A DNA stretch of 26,177 nucleotides from the NCBI GenBank assembly GCA_030753015.1, contig JASMDC010000048.1, positions 1 through 26,177 on the forward strand, given 5' to 3'. This document shows positions 1,767 to 17,746 of this stretch, piece after piece (the first letter of the stretch is position 1; every line of letters begins with the position of its first letter). A program made the position numbers and the translations under genes. Under the pieces are notes generated by a model. The model saw only the letters and a list, made by a program, of their open reading frames with translations. It was not told the DNA's origin and searched no databases. Origin of the DNA: Candidatus Undinarchaeales archaeon. Its GTDB lineage: Archaea > SpSt-1190 > JASMDC01.

Positions 1767-3809
1767 CTAGGGCAACCAGCAGGAGGCGATCCCCTCTATG
1801 TCGTTGTAGGTCGAGGTGGTCGTGATGGATTCGCCCGACACGATCTCTTCTTGCTCTATATCGTAGACGTAGATCCTGTCACGGCCGTGAATACCGATCC
1901 ACAGCTTGCCGTCGGGGCGCATCTCCAGGCCTTCCGCATCAGTGGATCCCGGGAGGTTCCGATCGATCCTTGTCAGTCCTGGATCGCTGGGATCGTAGAC
2001 GTAGAGGTTGTCATCCTCGACGGCGTAGAGGAGGGTGCCATCGTCGTTCCACGCCAGTCCCTCGACGTTCTTACTGTTCGAATAGACAAGGGTACCCGCC
2101 CCTGTAGCGGTGTTGATCGTGATGAGGCCGTTATCCTCGGACCATCCATACAGTACACCATCGGACGGTCGGAACGAGAGGCCGACGACCTCCTCGAACC
2201 CCGTGATGGGGCCCACAGGGGCGATCATGCCGGTCACAGCATCGATTATGTGTAGGATAGCGATCTTCGAGTTGTCGTACGCAGTAGCGTAGAGCAGTCT
2301 CGTCGTGGGATGGATGTCGAGACCCTCGAAGTCCATGTTCCCACGGACAGGACCCAGCTCGGTGATCGAGCCCGTACCTAGGTCGATGGAGATGAACTGG
2401 GAGTCCTTACCCCTATCATCATGTATGGCGTAAAGGACTGTGGGTGCGCCCGATCCACAGGTGACAGGATTGACGATGTTGCAGGTGTTTTCGAACGTGC
2501 AGATGTCATCGCCCGAGCAGTCACTGTCTGTGGTGCACTCCGGCCCGGGAGTCGGAGTGGGTGTCGGCGTTGGCGTGGGTGTCGGCGTTGGCGTGGGCGT
2601 TGGCGTGGGCGTGGGCGTGGGCGTGGGCGTTGGCGTGGGCGTGGGCGTGGGCGTTGGCGTGGGTGTCGGTGTCGAGCTGCTCGTGATATGGATGAAGCAG
2701 ATCTTGGAGTTGCTGGATCCTGCCGCAGGATTGACCGTCAGCTTTCCATCGCTCACGGTCACGGTCGTGGTGTACTCGTCATAGTTGTCCTGGCCGTCCG
2801 GATCGGTCAGCACCGTCCCCTCGACGTTAAACGTGTTCACTTGGTCAGTATGGTCCGGGTCGCCCGCTGCCAGGAGAATATCGTAGGCCCCGTTGGGAAC
2901 CTCGATCTCCCAGGTCCGGTCACCGGACTTCTCGAGGTGGTTCAGCGTGTCGTAGCGCTGGTCCGGATTGGTACCGCGGTCACGGGTCTCGAAGTTGTTG
3001 GAATCCCAGCCGTAGCTGTAGCCGTTACCGCGGTCACCAAAGGCCTCGCCGCTATCCATCATATACCCGGACGGTACGGGGCGGCCATCTGGCTGGAAGT
3101 TGACCTGCATACCCGGGACAGGGGTGGGTGTCGGTGTGGGAGTAGGTGTGGGAGTAGGTGTCGGCGTGGGTGTGGGAGTTGGTGTCGGTGTGGGTGTGGC
3201 TGACGGGTCCGGTGTGGGCGTCGGGGTCGCCGACGGACCGGGCGTGGGCGTCGGTGTGGCGCCGCCGGGCGGTTGTTCGGAGGGATCGTCGCTCATGACC
3301 CACCAGGTGATAGTGTTGACGATCTCGCCTGCCGCTGCGATGTCCAGGTCGCCGTCGCCGTCGAGGTCGGCGGCGTGGACGGAGAGCGCCCCGTCGAAGT
3401 TGTCGACCACGTAGTTGCGGGTCCAGACAGATCCCTTGTTCTCGTACCACGAGATGGAGCCGTCGTTGTACTGTGCGATAACGAGGTCGAGGTCGCCGTC
3501 GGCGTTGATGTCGGCCGCGAAGATGCTGGTGACGTGCTCGAAGTTACCGTCGATGACGTGCTCGTCCCAGCTGGCGCCGTTCTCCCACCACAGGAGCTTG
3601 GCGTCGTCGTATGCGGCGCCGATGATGTCAAGGTCGCTGTCGCCGTCCAGGTCGGCCGCGTGGACCGCAGACGCACCGTCGAAGTCGTCCTTGATGACGT
3701 GCTTGGTCCAGCCGCTGCCGGTGTTCTCCCACATGGCGATCTCGTTCTCGATGTACCCGGCGGAGAGAACGTCGATGTCGCTGTCGCCGTCGATATCGGC
3801 CCCGTACAC
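1767..3809 (-). CDS. C-terminal part of pilin-adhesin fusion: FG-GAP repeats 4-7, Pro/Thr linkers, carbohydrate-binding-like domain, Cys-rich motif, beta-propeller
   Basis: Same frame as 3876..4940 and open from 3875; DxDGDxDxD repeats; VNFQP..GY..DSG..FGDRGNGYSYGW domain; CTTDSDCSGDDICTFENTC; repeated EGL/VGL blades; no signal peptide of its own. Confidence 0.8.
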   Translation of the reverse strand: MYGADIDGDSDIDVLSAGYIENEIAMWENTGSGWTKHVIKDDFDGASAVHAADLDGDSDLDIIGAAYDDAKLLWWENGASWDEHVIDGNFEHVTSIFAADINADGDLDLVIAQYNDGSISWYENKGSVWTRNYVVDNFDGALSVHAADLDGDGDLDIAAAGEIVNTITWWVMSDDPSEQPPGGATPTPTPGPSATPTPTPDPSATPTPTPTPTPTPTPTPTPTPTPTPTPVPGMQVNFQPDGRPVPSGYMMDSGEAFGDRGNGYSYGWDSNNFETRDRGTNPDQRYDTLNHLEKSGDRTWEIEVPNGAYDILLAAGDPDHTDQVNTFNVEGTVLTDPDGQDNYDEYTTTVTVSDGKLTVNPAAGSSNSKICFIHITSSSTPTPTPTPTPTPTPTPTPTPTPTPTPTPTPTPTPTPTPTPTPGPECTTDSDCSGDDICTFENTCNIVNPVTCGSGAPTVLYAIHDDRGKDSQFISIDLGTGSITELGPVRGNMDFEGLDIHPTTRLLYATAYDNSKIAILHIIDAVTGMIAPVGPITGFEEVVGLSFRPSDGVLYGWSEDNGLITINTATGAGTLVYSNSKNVEGLAWNDDGTLLYAVEDDNLYVYDPSDPGLTRIDRNLPGSTDAEGLEMRPDGKLWIGIHGRDRIYVYDIEQEEIVSGESITTTSTYNDIEGIASCWLP
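2548..2673 (-). repeat. coding (Thr-Pro)x21 hexamer tandem repeat
   Basis: Degenerate GGCGTG/GGCGTT/GGTGTC hexamers on the + strand. Confidence 0.95.
3121..3258 (-). repeat. coding Thr-Pro linker with PSATPTPTP units
   Basis: TPTPTPGPSATPTPTPDPSATPTP... Confidence 0.9.
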
Positions 3810-4292
3810 GTCACGGGCGCCGCCGAAGGACGCGTCGATCGAGTGCTTGGTCCAGCCGCTGCCGGTGTTCTCCCATCAGGCGACCTCGGAGGCGAGGGCG
3901 CCAGCGCCGAGCACGTCGATGTCGCTATCACCGTCCAGGTCGATGGCGTGTATCGCGCGGGCGCCGTCGAAGGAGGAGTCGATGGAGTGCTTGGTGAACG
4001 TGGGCGGGCTCGCACCGTCGTTCTCCCACCAGGCGATCTCGTCGCCCGTGAAAGCAGCCCCGACGACGTCCATGTCGCCGTCGCCGTTCAGGTCGGCGGC
4101 GTAGGCGTCCCTCACTCCTAAGAAGGAGGAATCGATGAGGTGCTCGTCCCAGCCGGACGCGCCGCCGAGGTTCTCCCACCAGGCGATGGTGTCAACATCG
4201 TACCCGGCACCGAGCACGTCAACATCACCGTCGCCGTCGATGTCGGCCGCGTACACCGCCGTGGCTCCGCCGAAGTCCGACTCGAGATCGTA
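3296..4292 (-). repeat. seven FG-GAP-like repeats (~48 aa each) spanning the internal TGA
   Basis: Seven A(A/I)D(I/L)(D/N)xDxDxD...W(W/Y)EN-type units; 33-nt identical copies at 3699-3731 and 3843-3875. Confidence 0.9.
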
Positions 4293-4940
4293 GCCCTGGA
4301 TCGGGACGGGGTTGCCGAAGTAGGCCCGGTCGTCGCCACCGAGCTCGATCTTGCCCGAGCAGATGGCCGTCTCGGACATGCCCTGCAGCTCGCCGAAGCT
4401 GTCGTAGGTGACCTTCACCTTCGCCCGGTAGACATTCCCGCCGAGCAGGTCAAGCGTCCCCGCCCCAACGTCCTCCATACGGAGAGTGACGATCTCAGCC
4501 TCAGTGAGGTTGTGCTGCTGGCATCCCGAGTTGGTCTCGCCATCACGGTTGAACGTCTCGCACGCGTACCCACGGTCGGTCCACCGCTGGACCACACCCT
4601 CGGGAAACTCGACTAGAACCTCCTTGATCATGACCTGCTTACCGAAGCCGTTCTGGAGACGAAGGTTGAAGAGGCTCTCCCGGTCGTTGCCGTCAACGTT
4701 GTCGTCCGGGATGTCGAAGAGGCCGGTCTCGCGCCTGGCACCGAGGAGGTGGTCACGGTAATGGAGTTTCTGGAAACCGACACAGGAGCTCTTGACGTAG
4801 GTGCCGGGATTCAAGAAGCCCATGGAGTTCAAAGCAGCACCAGCGATAACGATGACGAGGAAGAGCCAGCCGTAGGTCATCAAGAATTCTATTGATGCCT
4901 GACCGCGCTTGCTTCTGAAATGCATCCAAATACCCCTCAT
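3876..4940 (-). CDS. N-terminal part of pilin-adhesin fusion: class III signal-peptide pilin domain + FG-GAP repeats 1-3
   Basis: KRG|QASIEFLMTYGW; pilin domain paralogous to 948..1538; ends at a TGA in a Trp position (EVA*WEN); alternative start ATG 4925. Confidence 0.85.
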   Translation of the reverse strand: MRGIWMHFRSKRGQASIEFLMTYGWLFLVIVIAGAALNSMGFLNPGTYVKSSCVGFQKLHYRDHLLGARRETGLFDIPDDNVDGNDRESLFNLRLQNGFGKQVMIKEVLVEFPEGVVQRWTDRGYACETFNRDGETNSGCQQHNLTEAEIVTLRMEDVGAGTLDLLGGNVYRAKVKVTYDSFGELQGMSETAICSGKIELGGDDRAYFGNPVPIQGYDLESDFGGATAVYAADIDGDGDVDVLGAGYDVDTIAWWENLGGASGWDEHLIDSSFLGVRDAYAADLNGDGDMDVVGAAFTGDEIAWWENDGASPPTFTKHSIDSSFDGARAIHAIDLDGDSDIDVLGAGALASEVA

Positions 4941-5125
4941 AGCACCATCTAACGATTATCAAAGTACATGCTTCTTCCAATATTTAGTCATCTTGTGCTT
5001 TAATGCTTTCTACATAGGTTGTATATACAATAAATACATCTATACCATTCCACAAAGTACCTACATAAATACGACGTGAGCTCCAGATAATCAGTCATTT
5101 AAAACAGCAAGCCCATTGGACGTCC

Positions 5126-6502
5126 ATGAAATCGCAGCATGTGACTATAATTGCCGGTCTTGAGTATGGCAATAGGACGCTGCGTGATTTCTTGCCACGC
5201 GATGTCGATGTCCACATCCTGCGCCCCACATCCTGCGCGACGCCTGTCGGTGATCCCGCGACCGCGCTGGCCCGTGCGCTCGACGAGCCGCTAGGGATGC
5301 TGAGCCTAAGAGAGACGGTGGCACAGCACTACCTGCGAGGGAGGTCCGTGCTCATCCTCGTCGACGACAACACACGCCCGAACCAGCACACGCGGATCCT
5401 CCTTCCGCTGTTGCGCGATGCGCTCATCAGATGCGGTGTTGCCGATGATGACGTCCAGGTCATGGTCGCCTCCGGTACCCACCGCCCACCTACCGAGGAG
5501 GAGGTGGCCCGCATGATCCTAACGCCGGAACTGGCCCGCGACTTTGGCGAGAGGGTGTTCGTCCATGACTGCGACCGGGACAACGAGCGCATCGGTACCA
5601 CCCGGTTCGGGACACCCGTATGGCTCGACCGTCGCCTGCTCGAAGCGTCCATGGTCATCCCCCTCACCGACAGCGAGTTCCATTACTTCGCCGGCCAGGC
5701 GGGGACCGTGAAGTCCATCTGCCCCGGGACCGCAGGTCGGGAGACCATCCAGGTGAACCACGCTCGGATGTTCCATCCCGAGCACGGGTTCATGTCAGAG
5801 TGCCGGCTTGCCAATATCAAAGACAATCCCGTCTTCCAGGACATCACGGAGATCGCCCGCATGGCGACCGAGCGGGTGCCTGTGTTCGGCGTGGACGCCG
5901 TGATGGACTGCGGCCACATCGTGCACCTCGCGGCCGGGGAGCTGGGAGCGCTCCACTCCGCTGCAGCGCCCGTGCTCGAGGGATTGCGGGTGGTCGACAT
6001 AGAACGGCCCGGCGATATCGTCGTGGTGTCCGCAGCAGCCCAGGGCATCAACCTCTATCAAGCTGTAAAGGCCGTCCACTGTGGCTGGAACGCGGTACGC
6101 AAGGACGGTCGCGGACGCATCGTTGTGATCGCCCCGTGCTCGGACGGCGTCGGTAACGAGGCGTTCAGCGAGGCCATGTCGGCCGTCGCAGGTCTCCCCC
6201 CACGGGAGGCGATGCGCAAGGTGATCGCCAAGCGGTGCGGGGCCGATGTCTTCCGCATAGGGAACCAGAAGCCTGTGGACCTGCTACGCACCATCGACAC
6301 CGTGGGGGAGGGGAGTATCAACATGCTCACCGAGATGGACCCCCAAGAGCTCGAGGGGGTGTTCCGGCTGGTCGCCATCCCGGCAGGAAGCGATCCTGCT
6401 GCGGCCCTGCGAGTAGCTCTCAAGGGATTCGCTTCAGAGCACGAACGGCCGCTCATATATCTGCTGGAGGATCCGTCGGTACTAGTTCGGATCCCTCCAT
6501 GA
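5126..6502 (+). CDS. larA: LarA-family nickel-pincer-dependent 2-hydroxyacid racemase/epimerase
   Basis: DDNTRP, ASGTHR, VHDC, HYFAGxxGxxKSICPG, NH and NLYQAVK motifs; TATA-like ATTTAAAA at 5097-5104; substrate not determinable. Confidence 0.85.
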   Translation: MKSQHVTIIAGLEYGNRTLRDFLPRDVDVHILRPTSCATPVGDPATALARALDEPLGMLSLRETVAQHYLRGRSVLILVDDNTRPNQHTRILLPLLRDALIRCGVADDDVQVMVASGTHRPPTEEEVARMILTPELARDFGERVFVHDCDRDNERIGTTRFGTPVWLDRRLLEASMVIPLTDSEFHYFAGQAGTVKSICPGTAGRETIQVNHARMFHPEHGFMSECRLANIKDNPVFQDITEIARMATERVPVFGVDAVMDCGHIVHLAAGELGALHSAAAPVLEGLRVVDIERPGDIVVVSAAAQGINLYQAVKAVHCGWNAVRKDGRGRIVVIAPCSDGVGNEAFSEAMSAVAGLPPREAMRKVIAKRCGADVFRIGNQKPVDLLRTIDTVGEGSINMLTEMDPQELEGVFRLVAIPAGSDPAAALRVALKGFASEHERPLIYLLEDPSVLVRIPP

Positions 6503-10230: not shown

Positions 10231-10305
10231 GGGCTCGTGGCCTAGTCTGGATAGGGCGGCGGCCTCCTAAGCCGTAGACCGCGGGTTCAAATCCTGCCGG
10301 GCCCA
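10231..10305 (+). tRNA. tRNA-Arg(CCT), intronless, CCA not encoded
   Basis: Acceptor GGGCTCG/CGGGCCC; anticodon arm GCGGC-CTCCTAA-GCCGT; T arm GCGGG-TTCAAAT-CCTGC. Confidence 0.95.
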
Positions 10306-14968: not shown

Positions 14969-15097
14969 CTAGAACGCACCCATGAGATATAGGAGGCCTG
15001 CTGACAGGAGAACGGCAAGAAGGAACATCCCCACGATGGAACGATAGGCCGAGATGGGGAAACCCATGAGCATCTGCTCCTCGTGTTCATCCCCCAT
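14969..15097 (-). CDS. 42-aa single-TM microprotein
   Basis: MGDEHEEQMLMGFPISAYRSIVGMFLLAVLLSAGLLYLMGAF; CAAAAC-CTTAAAG promoter ~27 nt upstream. Confidence 0.6.
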   Translation of the reverse strand: MGDEHEEQMLMGFPISAYRSIVGMFLLAVLLSAGLLYLMGAF

Positions 15098-15208
15098 TCT
15101 AAAGAACGTAGAGTCCCTAACGGCTTTAAGGTTTTGCTTGGTGGAGCGCGCGTCAAGCCTAATCAAATGGGGATGGATCCGTTTGTCGTGCATTCAGGCT
15201 TGCACCAG

Positions 15209-15418
15209 CTACATGGGCGGGAGATTGCCCACTCCGCCCGACGGGGCGCAGTCGTCCAGGCACTTACGCAGCTTCCGCATGCAATCCGAGTATATCTCGG
15301 TAGGCTCCCCCATGCTGTCGTATTTGAGCGCGCAGCCCTTACCACAGATGGAGCTGGAGTTCGCCGGGGGGCCGGGCGCCCGGCTTGCTGCGAGGGATTC
15401 CCCCCTCACGGTCGTCAC
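15209..15418 (-). CDS. small Cys-rich protein (69 aa)
   Basis: GTG preceded by GGTGAT SD-like motif; GC-rich third codon positions; Cx3C...Cx6Cx3C. Confidence 0.5.
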   Translation of the reverse strand: MTTVRGESLAASRAPGPPANSSSICGKGCALKYDSMGEPTEIYSDCMRKLRKCLDDCAPSGGVGNLPPM

Positions 15419-15461
15419 AAATCAATATCACCGCCGGGGACCATCCTTGGAGGAGGGCCCC

Positions 15462-15534
15462 CGGGCGATGATGACCTTGTTACGAAGGTACGGGGGAGCT
15501 GGCCCCCGATGACCTGACCAAAGTACTGAGCCCG
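15462..15534 (+). ncRNA. box C/D guide sRNA with antisense element to the 16S rRNA 3' minor domain
   Basis: Terminal stem CGGGC/GCCCG; box C ATGATGA 15468-15474; box D CTGA 15526-15529 in canonical kink-turn register; C'-like CGATGA 15507-15512; ACCTTGTTACGA 15474-15485 complementary to universal SSU UCGUAACAAGGU. Confidence 0.75.
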
Positions 15535-15547
15535 TGGGCCTCCAGCA

Positions 15548-15561
15548 CTATAAACCTTTCG
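15548..15561 (-). promoter_or_regulatory. BRE/TATA promoter pointing through the sRNA toward the Cys-rich ORF
   Basis: Minus-strand CGAAAG-GTTTATAG. Confidence 0.55.
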
Positions 15562-15610
15562 CCGGTGATGGCGCGGACCCCCGTCCCTCGACGGGTGCCC
15601 TTTTCCAGGC

Positions 15611-17746
15611 CTATTTCGCGTGCTTCTCGATCAGCTCGACCACGTCGGGGAAGTCGATGCCCAGCTTCTTCACCGTCGCCAGGGTGGGGACGCCGTCGCT
15701 GTCCCACCCGCGGCGCTCGTACACCGCGTCCTTGAGCTTCTCGTACCGCTCCTCGCGGAACTTGCGCAGGATGGCGATCTTCTCCTCGGTGGACTTGCCC
15801 TCGATGTCGACCTCGTGCGTCTCTGTGAGCTGCTTGTCGTACCGCTCCTGGCGCGACTCGTACTCGATGGGAAGCACGGGGCCCACGGACCGGTAGGGGA
15901 TGTCGTCGTGCTTACGGGTGCCGAACCCGAGCTTGAGGTTGAACAGCCGCTGGAAGTTGTACACAGACTCGCTCATGGCGATGAGATCTTCGGGCTTCGA
16001 CTTCCGACCGGTCACCGCGGAGAAGTACTTGGCGTACCACTCCACGTGCTTCATCACCTTGGCAGGCTCCTTGGAATCCTTGTTGTCCTCGGGCACGATG
16101 TCGTTCCACGGCAGCTTGCACAGTCCGTTGAGACCGAACCAGGTCCGCCACATGGGGAACCAGTGGAGCGCCTCGGCCTTCTGCTCGAAGGTGGGCATGA
16201 AGTTGTGCACCATGTCCAGGAAGATGAGCCAGGCCTCGTCATGCTGAGGGCCCTTGAGCGCAAGGCCGTACCCGCCCTGCTGGGCCAGAGACTCCTTGGT
16301 CATGTACTCTGAAAACTCCATGCCCTTGGCCTCCATACCGATATCCTGCATGATGGAGGGATCGGCCCCGTACTCCGTAGCGAAGATCGCCTTCATCCTG
16401 CGGATGCCCTGGCCGACGATGACGCCGAAGCCCTCGTCGCGGGCCATCTGGTGCAAAAGCTCCAGCGCCGCCAGCCGGTTGCCGAACCTAAGCTCCAGAC
16501 CGCCGGTGTGCTCGGTAGTGATGAGCCCCAGCTCGTAGCACTCGAAGGCGAACGCCGCTCCGGTACCGTAGGATATCGTGTCGAGGCCGTAGGTGTCGCA
16601 GTAGAAGTTGATCTCGACCACGGTGTGGGGGTCGAAGATGCCGAGGTTGGAGCCACAGCCAGCGATGGTCTCGTACTCGGGACCGTCCACGAACACCTTC
16701 TTCCCGGCATAGGGGCCGGTGAGGGGAACGAAGTCCTTGACGCCGTGGGCGCAGGCGACCGTGCACCCCTTCCAGCATCCATCGAAGCCCTTGTCGAAGA
16801 GTCGGCGGTACACCTCGGCCCCCAAGTTGGCGGATTCCGGATGCTTGCCGTAGCGATAGTTGTGGGTGGGCAGGAGGTCGAAGTCGTCCATGATGGTGAC
16901 CAGATGCGTGGTACCCAGCACGGCCATCTCGTTCTGCTTGGGGTCCAGCTCCTTGATCTCCTTGGAGTGGAGCTTGGCAACCTCCTTGAGCGCTTCGATG
17001 TCGGCCGGGGCGTTCGTGTCGATCTTGACCGGGTTCCAGCGAGCGACGATTGCCTTCAGACCCTTGTCCGCGAACACGGTACCGATACCGCCACGGCCCG
17101 CCTGCTTGTAGCGGGCGAGCTTGCGCCCCATGTCGTACCAGGAGAAGTTCAGGCACCCGATGCGGGTGTTCTTGGCCCCTGTGCCCGCAGTGACGACAGA
17201 GATGTTCTGGGGCTTGTCCCCGCCGAAGTGCTCGGTGAGGATCGCGGAGATCTCGTGGGCCTCCTCGGGAAGGTCGGGGATGCTCAGGATCTTTACAACG
17301 CCCTCGATGCCGTCGATGAGGACCACGGAGTCCTCCATGCCCTTTCCGGCGACCTCAAGGACGTCGAAACCGCTGAACTTGAGGAAGGGACCGAAGTAAC
17401 CGCCGACGTTGGAGTCGATGACAGAGCCTGTGATAGGCGAGATGGTGGTGACGATGCTCTTGCCCGAGCCGGGGTAGATGGGCGTACCGCCCAGGGCGCC
17501 GGACGCGATGCAGATCTCGTTCTCCGGAGAGTCCCACTTGGTGTCGCCGGTGACCGCGTTCCACAGGAGCCACAGGTCGAAGCCCTTGCCGCCGATGAAG
17601 GTATCCTTCATCTTCTTGTCGACGGGCTTGATCGAGATCTCGTAGTCAGAGATGTTCACGTACAGCGTCTGGTCGGCGTAACCGCGGTCGATGGCGGGCC
17701 GGTCATAGGTGATGGATGCAAGCTCCTGGATGCTGAGTTTCTTCAT
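15611..17746 (-). CDS. aor: aldehyde:ferredoxin oxidoreductase family (W/Mo-pterin) protein
   Basis: FIGGKG, SPITG...DSNVGG, AGRGGIGTV, CWKGCTVAC, GPEYET, CDTYGLDTIS, GLCK, YERRGWDSDGVP; ATG 17746 after GAGAGG. Confidence 0.92.
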   Translation of the reverse strand: MKKLSIQELASITYDRPAIDRGYADQTLYVNISDYEISIKPVDKKMKDTFIGGKGFDLWLLWNAVTGDTKWDSPENEICIASGALGGTPIYPGSGKSIVTTISPITGSVIDSNVGGYFGPFLKFSGFDVLEVAGKGMEDSVVLIDGIEGVVKILSIPDLPEEAHEISAILTEHFGGDKPQNISVVTAGTGAKNTRIGCLNFSWYDMGRKLARYKQAGRGGIGTVFADKGLKAIVARWNPVKIDTNAPADIEALKEVAKLHSKEIKELDPKQNEMAVLGTTHLVTIMDDFDLLPTHNYRYGKHPESANLGAEVYRRLFDKGFDGCWKGCTVACAHGVKDFVPLTGPYAGKKVFVDGPEYETIAGCGSNLGIFDPHTVVEINFYCDTYGLDTISYGTGAAFAFECYELGLITTEHTGGLELRFGNRLAALELLHQMARDEGFGVIVGQGIRRMKAIFATEYGADPSIMQDIGMEAKGMEFSEYMTKESLAQQGGYGLALKGPQHDEAWLIFLDMVHNFMPTFEQKAEALHWFPMWRTWFGLNGLCKLPWNDIVPEDNKDSKEPAKVMKHVEWYAKYFSAVTGRKSKPEDLIAMSESVYNFQRLFNLKLGFGTRKHDDIPYRSVGPVLPIEYESRQERYDKQLTETHEVDIEGKSTEEKIAILRKFREERYEKLKDAVYERRGWDSDGVPTLATVKKLGIDFPDVVELIEKHAK

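Follow-up and report, generated by a model that had tools for sequence, protein, structure and literature searches.

The window analyzed here is a stretch of 26,177 nucleotides from the contig JASMDC010000048.1 of a Candidatus Undinarchaeales archaeon, in which a prediction made from the sequence alone had placed a box C/D small RNA (sRNA) directed against the decoding-site region of the 16S rRNA. Our preferred reading makes the element a member of a box C/D-type RNA family that is confined to one genus, resembles miniature inverted-repeat transposable elements (MITEs) and carries a hairpin-capped, non-canonical C'/D' motif. We assign a probability of roughly 0.6 to the reading in which the window harbors, on the plus strand, a box C/D-type small RNA gene residing in a cassette of about 157 nt that has been multiplied within one archaeal genus and that would work by the mechanism given below. 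It is quite probable that the family as such encodes genuine C/D-type RNAs; the narrower claim that the copy in the window methylates U1498 of the 16S rRNA, which is predicted from its guide, stands at slightly worse than even odds. The comparisons were carried out between the metagenome-assembled genome that contains the window (G000; 3.85 Mb in 117 contigs, 60% GC, 98.9% complete) and that of a sister species (G001; 99% complete), the sole genome of the same genus compared.

A repeated cassette with box C/D architecture

By searching the assembly against itself with BLAST, nine copies of the cassette were recovered in G000 (on contigs C60, C106, C52, C117, C34 and C95, and three on C37, two of which stand in tandem), exhibiting 69-83% identity, and at least four copies were found in G001 through a DNA search of 41 genomes and the resulting alignments. 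Outside the limits of the cassette, the flanks of non-syntenic copies are unrelated. The copy in the window comprises the following features:

15405..15561, plus strand: the repeated cassette, about 157 nt, the unit common to the paralogues, delimited by BLAST and by alignment with the eight other copies in G000 and the copies in G001
15456..15466, plus strand: 5' half of the terminal stem, GGCCCCCGGGC, pairing with 15530-15540 and covarying with it
15467..15474, plus strand: C box GAUGAUGA, in which RUGAUGA reads AUGAUGA at 15468-15474, kept in 14 of 16 aligned members
15475..15486, plus strand: guide 1 (D' side), 12 nt; the 16S duplex uses 15474-15485
15487..15490, plus strand: GGUA in the D' place, a family consensus whose GGU pairs with ACC at 15512-15514
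15491..15508, plus strand: internal GC hairpin that separates the D' place from the C' place, found in every copy, differing in length and showing compensatory changes
15508..15514, plus strand: C'-like GAUGACC (GAUGA at 15508-15512), near-invariant across the family
15513..15525, plus strand: guide 2 (D side), 13 nt, an orphan and the fastest-changing segment between related copies
15526..15529, plus strand: D box CUGA, kept in 13 of 16 members
15530..15540, plus strand: 3' half of the terminal stem, GCCCGUGGGCC, covarying with 15456-15466

The terminal stem consists of 11 bp, with 10 Watson-Crick pairs around a single C.U mismatch, and the C/D geometry that it closes, as read from the sequence, is that of a textbook kink-turn (K-turn), comprising the stem, a G-A-U bulge, GA opposite GA, a U.U pair and a G-C pair. 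A rereading of the window confirmed the element as it was originally observed, that is, a C/D K-turn with an extended terminal stem, with boxes, stem and coordinates in place, the GC hairpin at 15491-15508, and a guide able to fold on itself through ACCTT (15474-15478) and AAGGT (15485-15489). The accompanying remark that no clear D' box exists holds insofar as CUGA is missing there, but it overlooked the GGUA that is conserved in this place throughout the family. Likewise, the multi-copy nature and apparent mobility of the cassette, as well as the promoter motif on its opposite strand, had been missed. In the same register as the terminal motif, the internal one presents a G.A pair (1b.1n), an A.U pair (2b.2n; A.C in one copy) and two C-G pairs, from which we infer that GGUA/GAUGACC may form a motif resembling a K-turn, which a real helix closes, where archaeal sRNAs usually have a kink-loop (K-loop). 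Within it, A15490 could make a sheared pair with G15511.

All copies share one order of parts, namely about 50 conserved nt, 8 variable nt, a GC-rich 5' stem followed by GAUGAUGA, 12 variable nt, GGUA, the hairpin, GAUGACC, about 10 variable nt, CUGA, the 3' stem and about 22 conserved nt. Of the 14 main-family copies that were extracted, 13 possess the C box, the D box, the stem and a spacing of exactly 12 nt from the C box to GGUA; the spacing from C' to D is 12-14 nt. Departures from the boxes are few among the 16 members: the C box is degenerate in two (the copy on contig C95 and the second copy on G001 contig C9), the D box reads CTGG once and CCGA twice, and GGUA becomes GGCA in one copy. 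The hairpins of two copies are capped by GNRA loops (GUAA and GCAA) on the plus strand.

Support from RNAalifold and from pair counts was obtained for the terminal stem, for GGU/ACC and for the hairpin, three helices in all. Among the 16 homologous RNAs, 94.8% of 286 cells are paired compared with 80.7% after shuffling, a level reached in none of 500 shuffles, with the caveat that the alignment had been fitted to the model and is biased in its favor; registers slid as controls gave 35-63% paired. Both sides have changed in 10 of 18 pairs overall and in 6 of 10 within helices 1 and 2, which form the terminal stem. Conservation in the family is highest in the unpaired box motifs, which surpass the stems.

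The distribution of the family is narrow. A covariance model built from 12 copies (R1) matched 10 places in G000 and 5-6 in G001 and none in the other 15 genomes of the phylum that were searched (2 of 17 genomes positive), and a wider model (R2) added nothing credible. A pattern scan over one genome per species yielded 10 stretches, of which two lie in G001 and eight in bacterial records, the latter unexamined. Out of 63 stretches returned by a scan of metagenome contigs, two fit the model, one with the same sequence as the first C37 copy (C37a) and the other a relative's version of the C117 copy. Other candidates were discarded: those from a loose regular expression (contigs C50, C59, C109 and C106:78352) and the weak model matches (C11, C95b, and C22, C19 and C6 of G001) were coding-like or degenerate and had no rRNA targets. 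An alternative H/ACA assignment, with a pocket, a K-turn and an ACA, was also rejected, the upper stem being only 3 bp long and no conserved ACA following the stem.

Predicted guide targets and the C/D machinery

Since neither small-subunit (SSU) nor large-subunit rRNA was found in the G000 assembly, targets were sought on the rRNA operon of G001. The G001 16S rRNA contains TCGTAACAAGGT at a single place, and the segment ACCTTGTTACGA (15474-15485) is perfectly complementary to it, with Watson-Crick pairs at 12 of 12 positions. Alignment to an E. coli rrs places TCGTAACAAGGT at E. coli 1495-1506, the position originally proposed for the pairing with SSU rRNA; in the rrs copy used, the numbering lags 22 nt behind the standard one, an offset common to the three sites mapped here. 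The convention behind the 1492R primer also puts TCGTAACAAGGT at 1495-1506. The box spacing fits the ordinary N+5 methylation rule, and counting from GGUA (15487) leads to A15482, opposite U1498, for which 2'-O-methyluridine (Um1498) is thus predicted. As to chance, 3 of 200 shuffles of guide 1 alone score as well, and a perfect rRNA run of at least 12 nt anywhere among the 28 guides of the family arose in 68 of 3000 shuffles (about 2%).

For guide 2 of the window, as originally noted, there is no identifiable target: no rRNA or tRNA complement exceeds chance (174 of 200 shuffles score as well). The same holds for guide 2 of every copy, with no rRNA target (a median of about 115 of 200 shuffles being as good) and no tRNA target. 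The only tRNA candidate of note within 2 mismatches was guide 1 against the anticodon loop of tRNA-Thr(CGU), which at 7 bp was judged too short. Among the remaining guides, the guide-1 type AUGGAUUCUGG, present in eight copies, pairs over 9-10 bp with one G.U with GCCGGAAUCC of the 16S rRNA and would direct N+5 to G1338; this pairing is weak and only slightly above chance, 4 to 48 of 200 shuffles scoring as well. We also observed that guide 1 of C95, guide 2 of C117 and guide 2 of the second G001 C9 copy have their best rRNA match in one and the same stretch of the G001 23S rRNA (about 306-321 of the extracted sequence); two of these three guides are related, and such a coincidence is expected about once among some 300 guide pairs.

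A rod-shaped RNA, in which guides 1 and 2 of one copy form a helix with each other, was considered and rejected, as own pairs (-4.7 kcal/mol) are no better than cross pairs (-4.6 kcal/mol) or shuffled ones. The two guides do not co-evolve as a helix and would therefore be free for pairing in trans. Syntenic pairs with well-kept flanks show guide 2 altered at 2-5 of its 13 positions or shortened by a single deleted base.

The proteins expected of such a system are encoded in the genome, fibrillarin and Nop5 by adjacent genes on contig C47, together with L7Ae. By a strict regular expression, no compact canonical C/D sRNA was detected in the 3.85 Mb of the genome, and the covariance models recovered only the repeated family and one further, more distant sRNA of the same hairpin design, single-copy and matched by R1:

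G000:C32:4679-4764, minus strand, and G001:C2:85589-85671, plus strand: the C32 sRNA

It follows the plan of stem, GAUGAUGA, 12 nt, CGCA, hairpin, GAUGA, 15 nt, CUGA and stem, with unrelated flanks, and the two species differ in it only where the 3' stem has its outer end. The D guide of the C32 sRNA pairs with ACCGCCCGUCA of the 16S rRNA and places N+5 on C1402, a position that carries 2'-O-methylcytidine in P. abyssi, yeast and human (PMC7005279, Table 4). Its D'-side guide pairs over 12 bp, three of them G.U, with helix 89 of the 23S rRNA, a score equaled by 2 of 200 shuffles. As an RNA of the same design whose predicted target is a known conserved 2'-O-methylation site, the C32 sRNA supports this design as the C/D type of the lineage and provides the best argument that it would be a working methylation guide there. 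A promoter-like AAGGTTTATATT was also observed after the C32 sRNA, on the same strand and ahead of a gene for an SBF-family transporter.

Taken with these features, the plus-strand reading implies the following mechanism. The 11-bp terminal stem would close the RNA and bring boxes C and D together as a standard K-turn, and the GGUA/GAUGACC pair at the D'/C' place, clamped by the hairpin, would form a K-turn variant. L7Ae would bind both motifs, on which Nop5 and fibrillarin would assemble, presenting the two spacers of 12-13 nt as guides. The D'-side guide would pair over 12 bp with 16S 1495-1506 and, by the N+5 rule, direct 2'-O-methylation to U1498 in the P site and decoding center, while the D-side guide would stay an orphan. 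U1498, C1402 and G1338 are P-site residues (PMC7005279), and in an active family the predicted sites at C1402 (C32 sRNA), at U1498 (the copy in the window) and possibly at G1338 would all lie at the P site of the 30S subunit.

Strand, mobility and competing explanations

Both ends of the cassette carry CGAAAG and a T/A-rich motif facing inward, forming only an imperfect inverted repeat. To score these ends, we used a promoter matrix learned on 36 regions upstream of tRNAs (with CAAAAGGTTTATAA as consensus and a median score of 12.6 bits; background matches of at least 12 bits at about 1e-4 per position). The motifs resemble the B recognition element (BRE) and TATA box, and they stand beside one RNA-library contig as follows:

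15548..15561, minus strand: right-end BRE/TATA motif CGAAAGGTTTATAG, 14.9 bits, pointing into the cassette, with a predicted minus-strand start near 15524
15418..15431, plus strand: left-end BRE/TATA-like motif, weak, placed such that a plus-strand start would fall at the terminal stem
15387..15537, strand unknown: RNA-library contig of 151 nt from the metatranscriptome run X20, depth 2, identical to the window, for which DNA carry-over is possible

Across the nine copies of G000, the right-end motif reaches 11.3-14.9 bits in seven and the left-end motif 2.5-6.4 bits in four; in the copy of the window the left-end motif was undetected, not being among the two best plus-strand matches, the better of which scores 3.0 bits and lies elsewhere. 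Structural features favor the plus strand, namely the K-turn motifs, the GNRA loops of two copies, the excess of G.U pairs (50 on the plus strand compared with 29 on the minus strand) and the lower folding energy (11 of 16 copies fold better, with a sum of -630 compared with -599 kcal/mol). Of the 23 runs listed, two RNA runs (X19 and X20) hold small parts of 15000-16500. The X20 contig, the only RNA contig on the cassette, stops on the right 3 nt before the terminal stem is complete, and as thin evidence it fits a 5'-extended plus-strand precursor better than a primary minus-strand transcript. The other RNA contig of the region, from X19, covers 16124-16268, and the two RNA runs hold no further cover of 15000-16500, which is uninformative on expression.

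As to mobility, the copies stand next to unrelated genes, which encode an aldehyde:ferredoxin oxidoreductase, a pyruvate kinase, an IS605 OrfB/TnpB, a nucleotidyltransferase, a DUF3795 protein, an FAD oxidoreductase, an F420 ligase, a beta-CASP nuclease, an M28 peptidase, a HAD protein and a histidine-kinase 7TM protein. The two tandem copies, 303 nt apart, adjoin the IS605 OrfB/TnpB gene at G000:C37:~3180-5130 (PF01385, E = 3.6e-12). No target-site duplication was seen by eye, no formal search having been made. At the syntenic site of the sister species, on G001 contig C20, the genes flanking the window's copy are kept (85% and 91% identical) around an unrelated spacer of 480 nt. Comparison of window 15175-15610 with G001:C20:41225-41700 revealed that the whole spacer between the gene for a 279-aa protein and the aldehyde:ferredoxin oxidoreductase gene is unrelated, and this spacer, in which a segment of about 435 nt differs, constitutes a hotspot for replacement and not a clean insertion.

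Several of the observations bear against a plus-strand guide for U1498. The cassette is absent from that syntenic site, and Um1498 would consequently be species-specific at a universally conserved position, which in P. abyssi and E. coli carries 3-methyluridine and not Um (PMC7005279, Table 4). The 16S match is not retained in the nearest relatives of the window's copy: in the closest sister copy, on G001 contig C1 (88% identical, at a different locus, with only the 157 nt matching), a guide indel leaves 8 + 3 bp, and the in-genome paralogue C37a keeps only 7 bp. Only guide 1 of the window attains a perfect rRNA run of 10 nt or more, the other 27 of the 28 family guides having none above 9 nt, and taken together the family guides look like orphans. 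At the D' place there is GGUA instead of CUGA, position 2n of the putative K-turn is a U, and in the subfamily of the window an extra C15491 stands between A15490 and the hairpin stem, which renders its internal motif less K-turn-like than that of other copies. The strong promoter motif points antisense, whereas the plus-strand one is weak throughout. The copy in the window also folds 2.3 kcal/mol better on the minus strand, and the X20 contig starts 65 nt upstream of the predicted plus-strand start. Finally, Rfam, by which the original prediction could be checked, returned no family at threshold for the element and only weak, sub-threshold plus-strand matches, all to archaeal C/D families; the only Rfam match at threshold in the window is a tRNA-Arg(CCU) at 10231-10305 (plus strand).

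Part of these points would be accommodated if the RNA family were the same but the copy in the window an orphan, that is, a selfish, MITE-like C/D element with drifting guides whose 12-nt 16S match is lucky or very recent and brings about no modification in vivo. We consider this unlikely on balance, albeit with appreciable weight. Guide 2 and most guide-1 sequences lacking a target, the guides differing more than the flanks between related copies, the absence at the G001 locus and the degraded match in relatives all speak for it, as do the MITE-like elements of Pyrobaculum calidifontis, whose guides are orphans or have non-conserved tRNA targets (PMC6009581). A selection effect may also have operated, the original prediction having been drawn by a recognizable primer-site sequence. 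It is countered by the family-wide chance of about 2% given above, by the position of the match, which falls precisely in the spacer flanked by the C box and the D' place and directs N+5 to a P-site residue, and by the textbook target of the C32 sRNA of the same design. It is improbable, by comparison, that the main product is a minus-strand transcript from the right-end promoter, either antisense to the C/D RNA or a structured leader for a leftward gene, with the plus-strand C/D appearance secondary or the two RNAs convergent. The right-end motif equals tRNA promoters in strength where the left end never exceeds 6.4 bits, the window's copy is slightly more stable on this strand, a minus-oriented ORF or gene lies to the left in five of nine copies (C60, C37a, C37b, C117 and C95), and the loci of P. 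calidifontis give 39% antisense reads (PMC6009581). On the other side, the K-turn motifs, the 12-nt spacing, the GNRA loops and the G.U excess all read on the plus strand, the left neighbors are unrelated and have the opposite orientation in three of nine copies, and the X20 contig reaches 13 nt beyond the predicted minus-strand start. A 69-aa Cys-rich open reading frame at 15209-15418 (minus strand) begins with a GTG within the conserved left end of the cassette; Pfam did not match it, and a search of 20 other genomes (G001 and 19 more) revealed no homologue. A conserved minus-strand frame starting in the left end, where 8 of 12 copies have GTG or ATG and 4 have GTT, was rejected, as similarity ends about 20 nt on.

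The original prediction had wavered between a 2'-O-methyl guide and a U13-like guide for acetylation. The box C/D part stands on the boxes, the K-turn geometry, the 12-nt spacer, the covarying stem and the ribonucleoprotein (RNP) genes, and the acetylation part is not supported. The presumed presence in U13 of the same ACCUUGUUACGA element could not be confirmed. Element 18S-A of U13 (nt 1-6) pairs with 18S 1854-1859, and other elements exist. A U13/SNORD13-like RNA would pair just 5' of helix 45 with no ribose methylation, its role being to assist in acetylating C1510 or simply in folding the 3' minor domain. In its favor, the 16S duplex ends at U1506, 4 nt 5' of C1510, which is the universal archaeal and eukaryal N4-acetylcytidine (ac4C) site, listed for P. 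abyssi, yeast and human (PMC7005279, Table 4); the SNORD13 of D. melanogaster works with a single antisense element, and guided acetylation in archaea is presented as an open question in PMC9226516; and nanoarchaeal sRNAs spanning helices 44 and 45 have been proposed as folding guides (PMC5389701). Duplex geometry alone does not exclude acetylation, and this reading is disfavored since the enzyme was not found: the NAT10/TmcA domains PF13718 and PF05127 have no match in G000, and the helicase domain PF05127 has none in G001, while positive controls matched. In addition, Rfam snoU13 gave no match at E<=10 over 15300-15700, no convincing second antisense element 3' of C1510 was seen by eye (no formal search was made), the box spacing is of the methylation-guide type, the cassette is missing from the sister species' locus, and RsmA/Dim1 is present in the genome, so that no bypass is needed. 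We regard this reading as scarcely probable at all, and with the enzyme missing the element does not open the question of archaeal RNA-guided acetylation. Only marginally better is the case for a repeat acting at the DNA level, as a protein-binding or recombination site whose palindromes mimic RNA stems, which is very improbable. The GC-rich palindromes (CCCCGGGG), the inward-facing promoter-like ends and the conservation of the flanks beyond the RNA body would suit it. The unpaired boxes are nonetheless more conserved than the stems, the G.U-compatible changes and the loop-length variation with compensatory pairs point to RNA, and the RNA-library contig X20 covers the element.

Returning to the plus-strand C/D reading, it admits a bolder extension that we deem doubtful. 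The cassette could be a self-propagating "guide nursery", in which a promoter-flanked unit of eukaryote-like design, having an extended terminal stem and, at C'/D', a true K-turn bearing a hairpin, copies itself, its spacers drift and a working guide is occasionally yielded; the window would then hold a newborn guide adding a species-specific Um1498, and antisense RNA from the strong inward promoter would control the cassette. If Um1498 is indeed present in this species beside a sister species that lacks it, the pair would constitute a natural experiment on decoding-center modification, and an active family would make the emergence of new rRNA methylation guides directly visible.

Two side observations concern the genomes themselves. 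Those of the genus span 3.6-3.8 Mb at 60% GC, and every other genome of the class or phylum in the collection has 0.6-1.2 Mb, so that either the lineage has large genomes within a DPANN phylum or its placement is doubtful. ARAGORN reported a tRNA with a 4-base anticodon (ccag) at G000:C21:39278-39372 and a tRNA-SeC(tca) at G000:C32:28602-28676, the whole G000 assembly yielding only 36 tRNAs.

Comparison with known systems

Canonical archaeal C/D sRNAs, according to the review PMC7994747, possess RUGAUGA and CUGA boxes, a K-turn at the termini, an internal K-loop and guides of about 12 nt obeying the N+5 rule. The family resembles them in its boxes, its terminal K-turn, its two guides of about 12 nt, the N+5 rule and the targeting of rRNA functional centers. 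It departs from them in having an 11-bp terminal stem, a hairpin of 14-26 nt where they have a K-loop of 3-9 nt, GGUA and not CUGA as D', a length of 84-97 nt compared with 50-60, and multiple copies with conserved promoter-like flanks. If the family is active, the archaeal C/D RNP would be able to use a hairpin-capped, non-CUGA D' motif, and search models would have to be widened, as current ones miss such RNAs.

In the targeted region, the nearest parallels come from Nanoarchaeum equitans, for which PMC5389701 describes C/D guides to helices 44 and 45. Its sR13 and related sRNAs are likewise from a DPANN-affiliated archaeon and are directed to the 16S 3' minor domain and decoding region. The sites there (1408/1409 and 1508) were mapped by mass spectrometry in an organism lacking RsmA (PMC5389701), whereas site 1498 of the window is predicted and RsmA/Dim1 is present. 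SNORD13 (U13) and yeast snR45 are also box C/D RNAs with an antisense element to the 3' end of SSU rRNA near an ac4C site. They need NAT10/Kre33 and usually two or three antisense elements around an unpaired C (PMC9226516, bioRxiv 10.1101/2022.05.12.491732). By contrast, the element of the window has a single antisense element and methylation-type spacing, in a genome where NAT10 was not found. Eukaryotic box C/D snoRNAs in general have a terminal stem and an internal stem that joins degenerate C' and D' boxes. The family shares both stems with them but has the dual 12-nt spacers of the archaeal type, and there is no evidence of common descent.

The closest precedent is found in the MITE-like C/D elements of P. 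calidifontis, and the present family is their counterpart in another phylum, with an internal architecture of its own. Lui et al. (2018, PMC6009581) describe 15 MITE-like copies of a C/D-like element, called the first such case in archaea, with consensus C/D boxes, degenerate C'/D' boxes, loosely similar orphan guides, conserved flanks and 39% antisense reads. Both families have a comparable copy number (about 15 there and 9 here), near-consensus C and D boxes, degenerate D'/C', modest similarity among guides, conserved flanks, orphan guides and restriction to a single lineage. Antisense transcription was measured there and is predicted here from the promoter motif only. The two differ in phylum and in sequence; the ends of the present cassette look like inward BRE/TATA motifs and not like clear terminal inverted repeats; it has an internal hairpin/K-turn and one copy with a perfect rRNA guide; and its copies lie close to genes, compared with about 320 nt from genes in P. 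calidifontis. If active, the family would be only the second archaeal case of a C/D guide gene spread in a transposon-like manner, and the first outside Thermoproteota.

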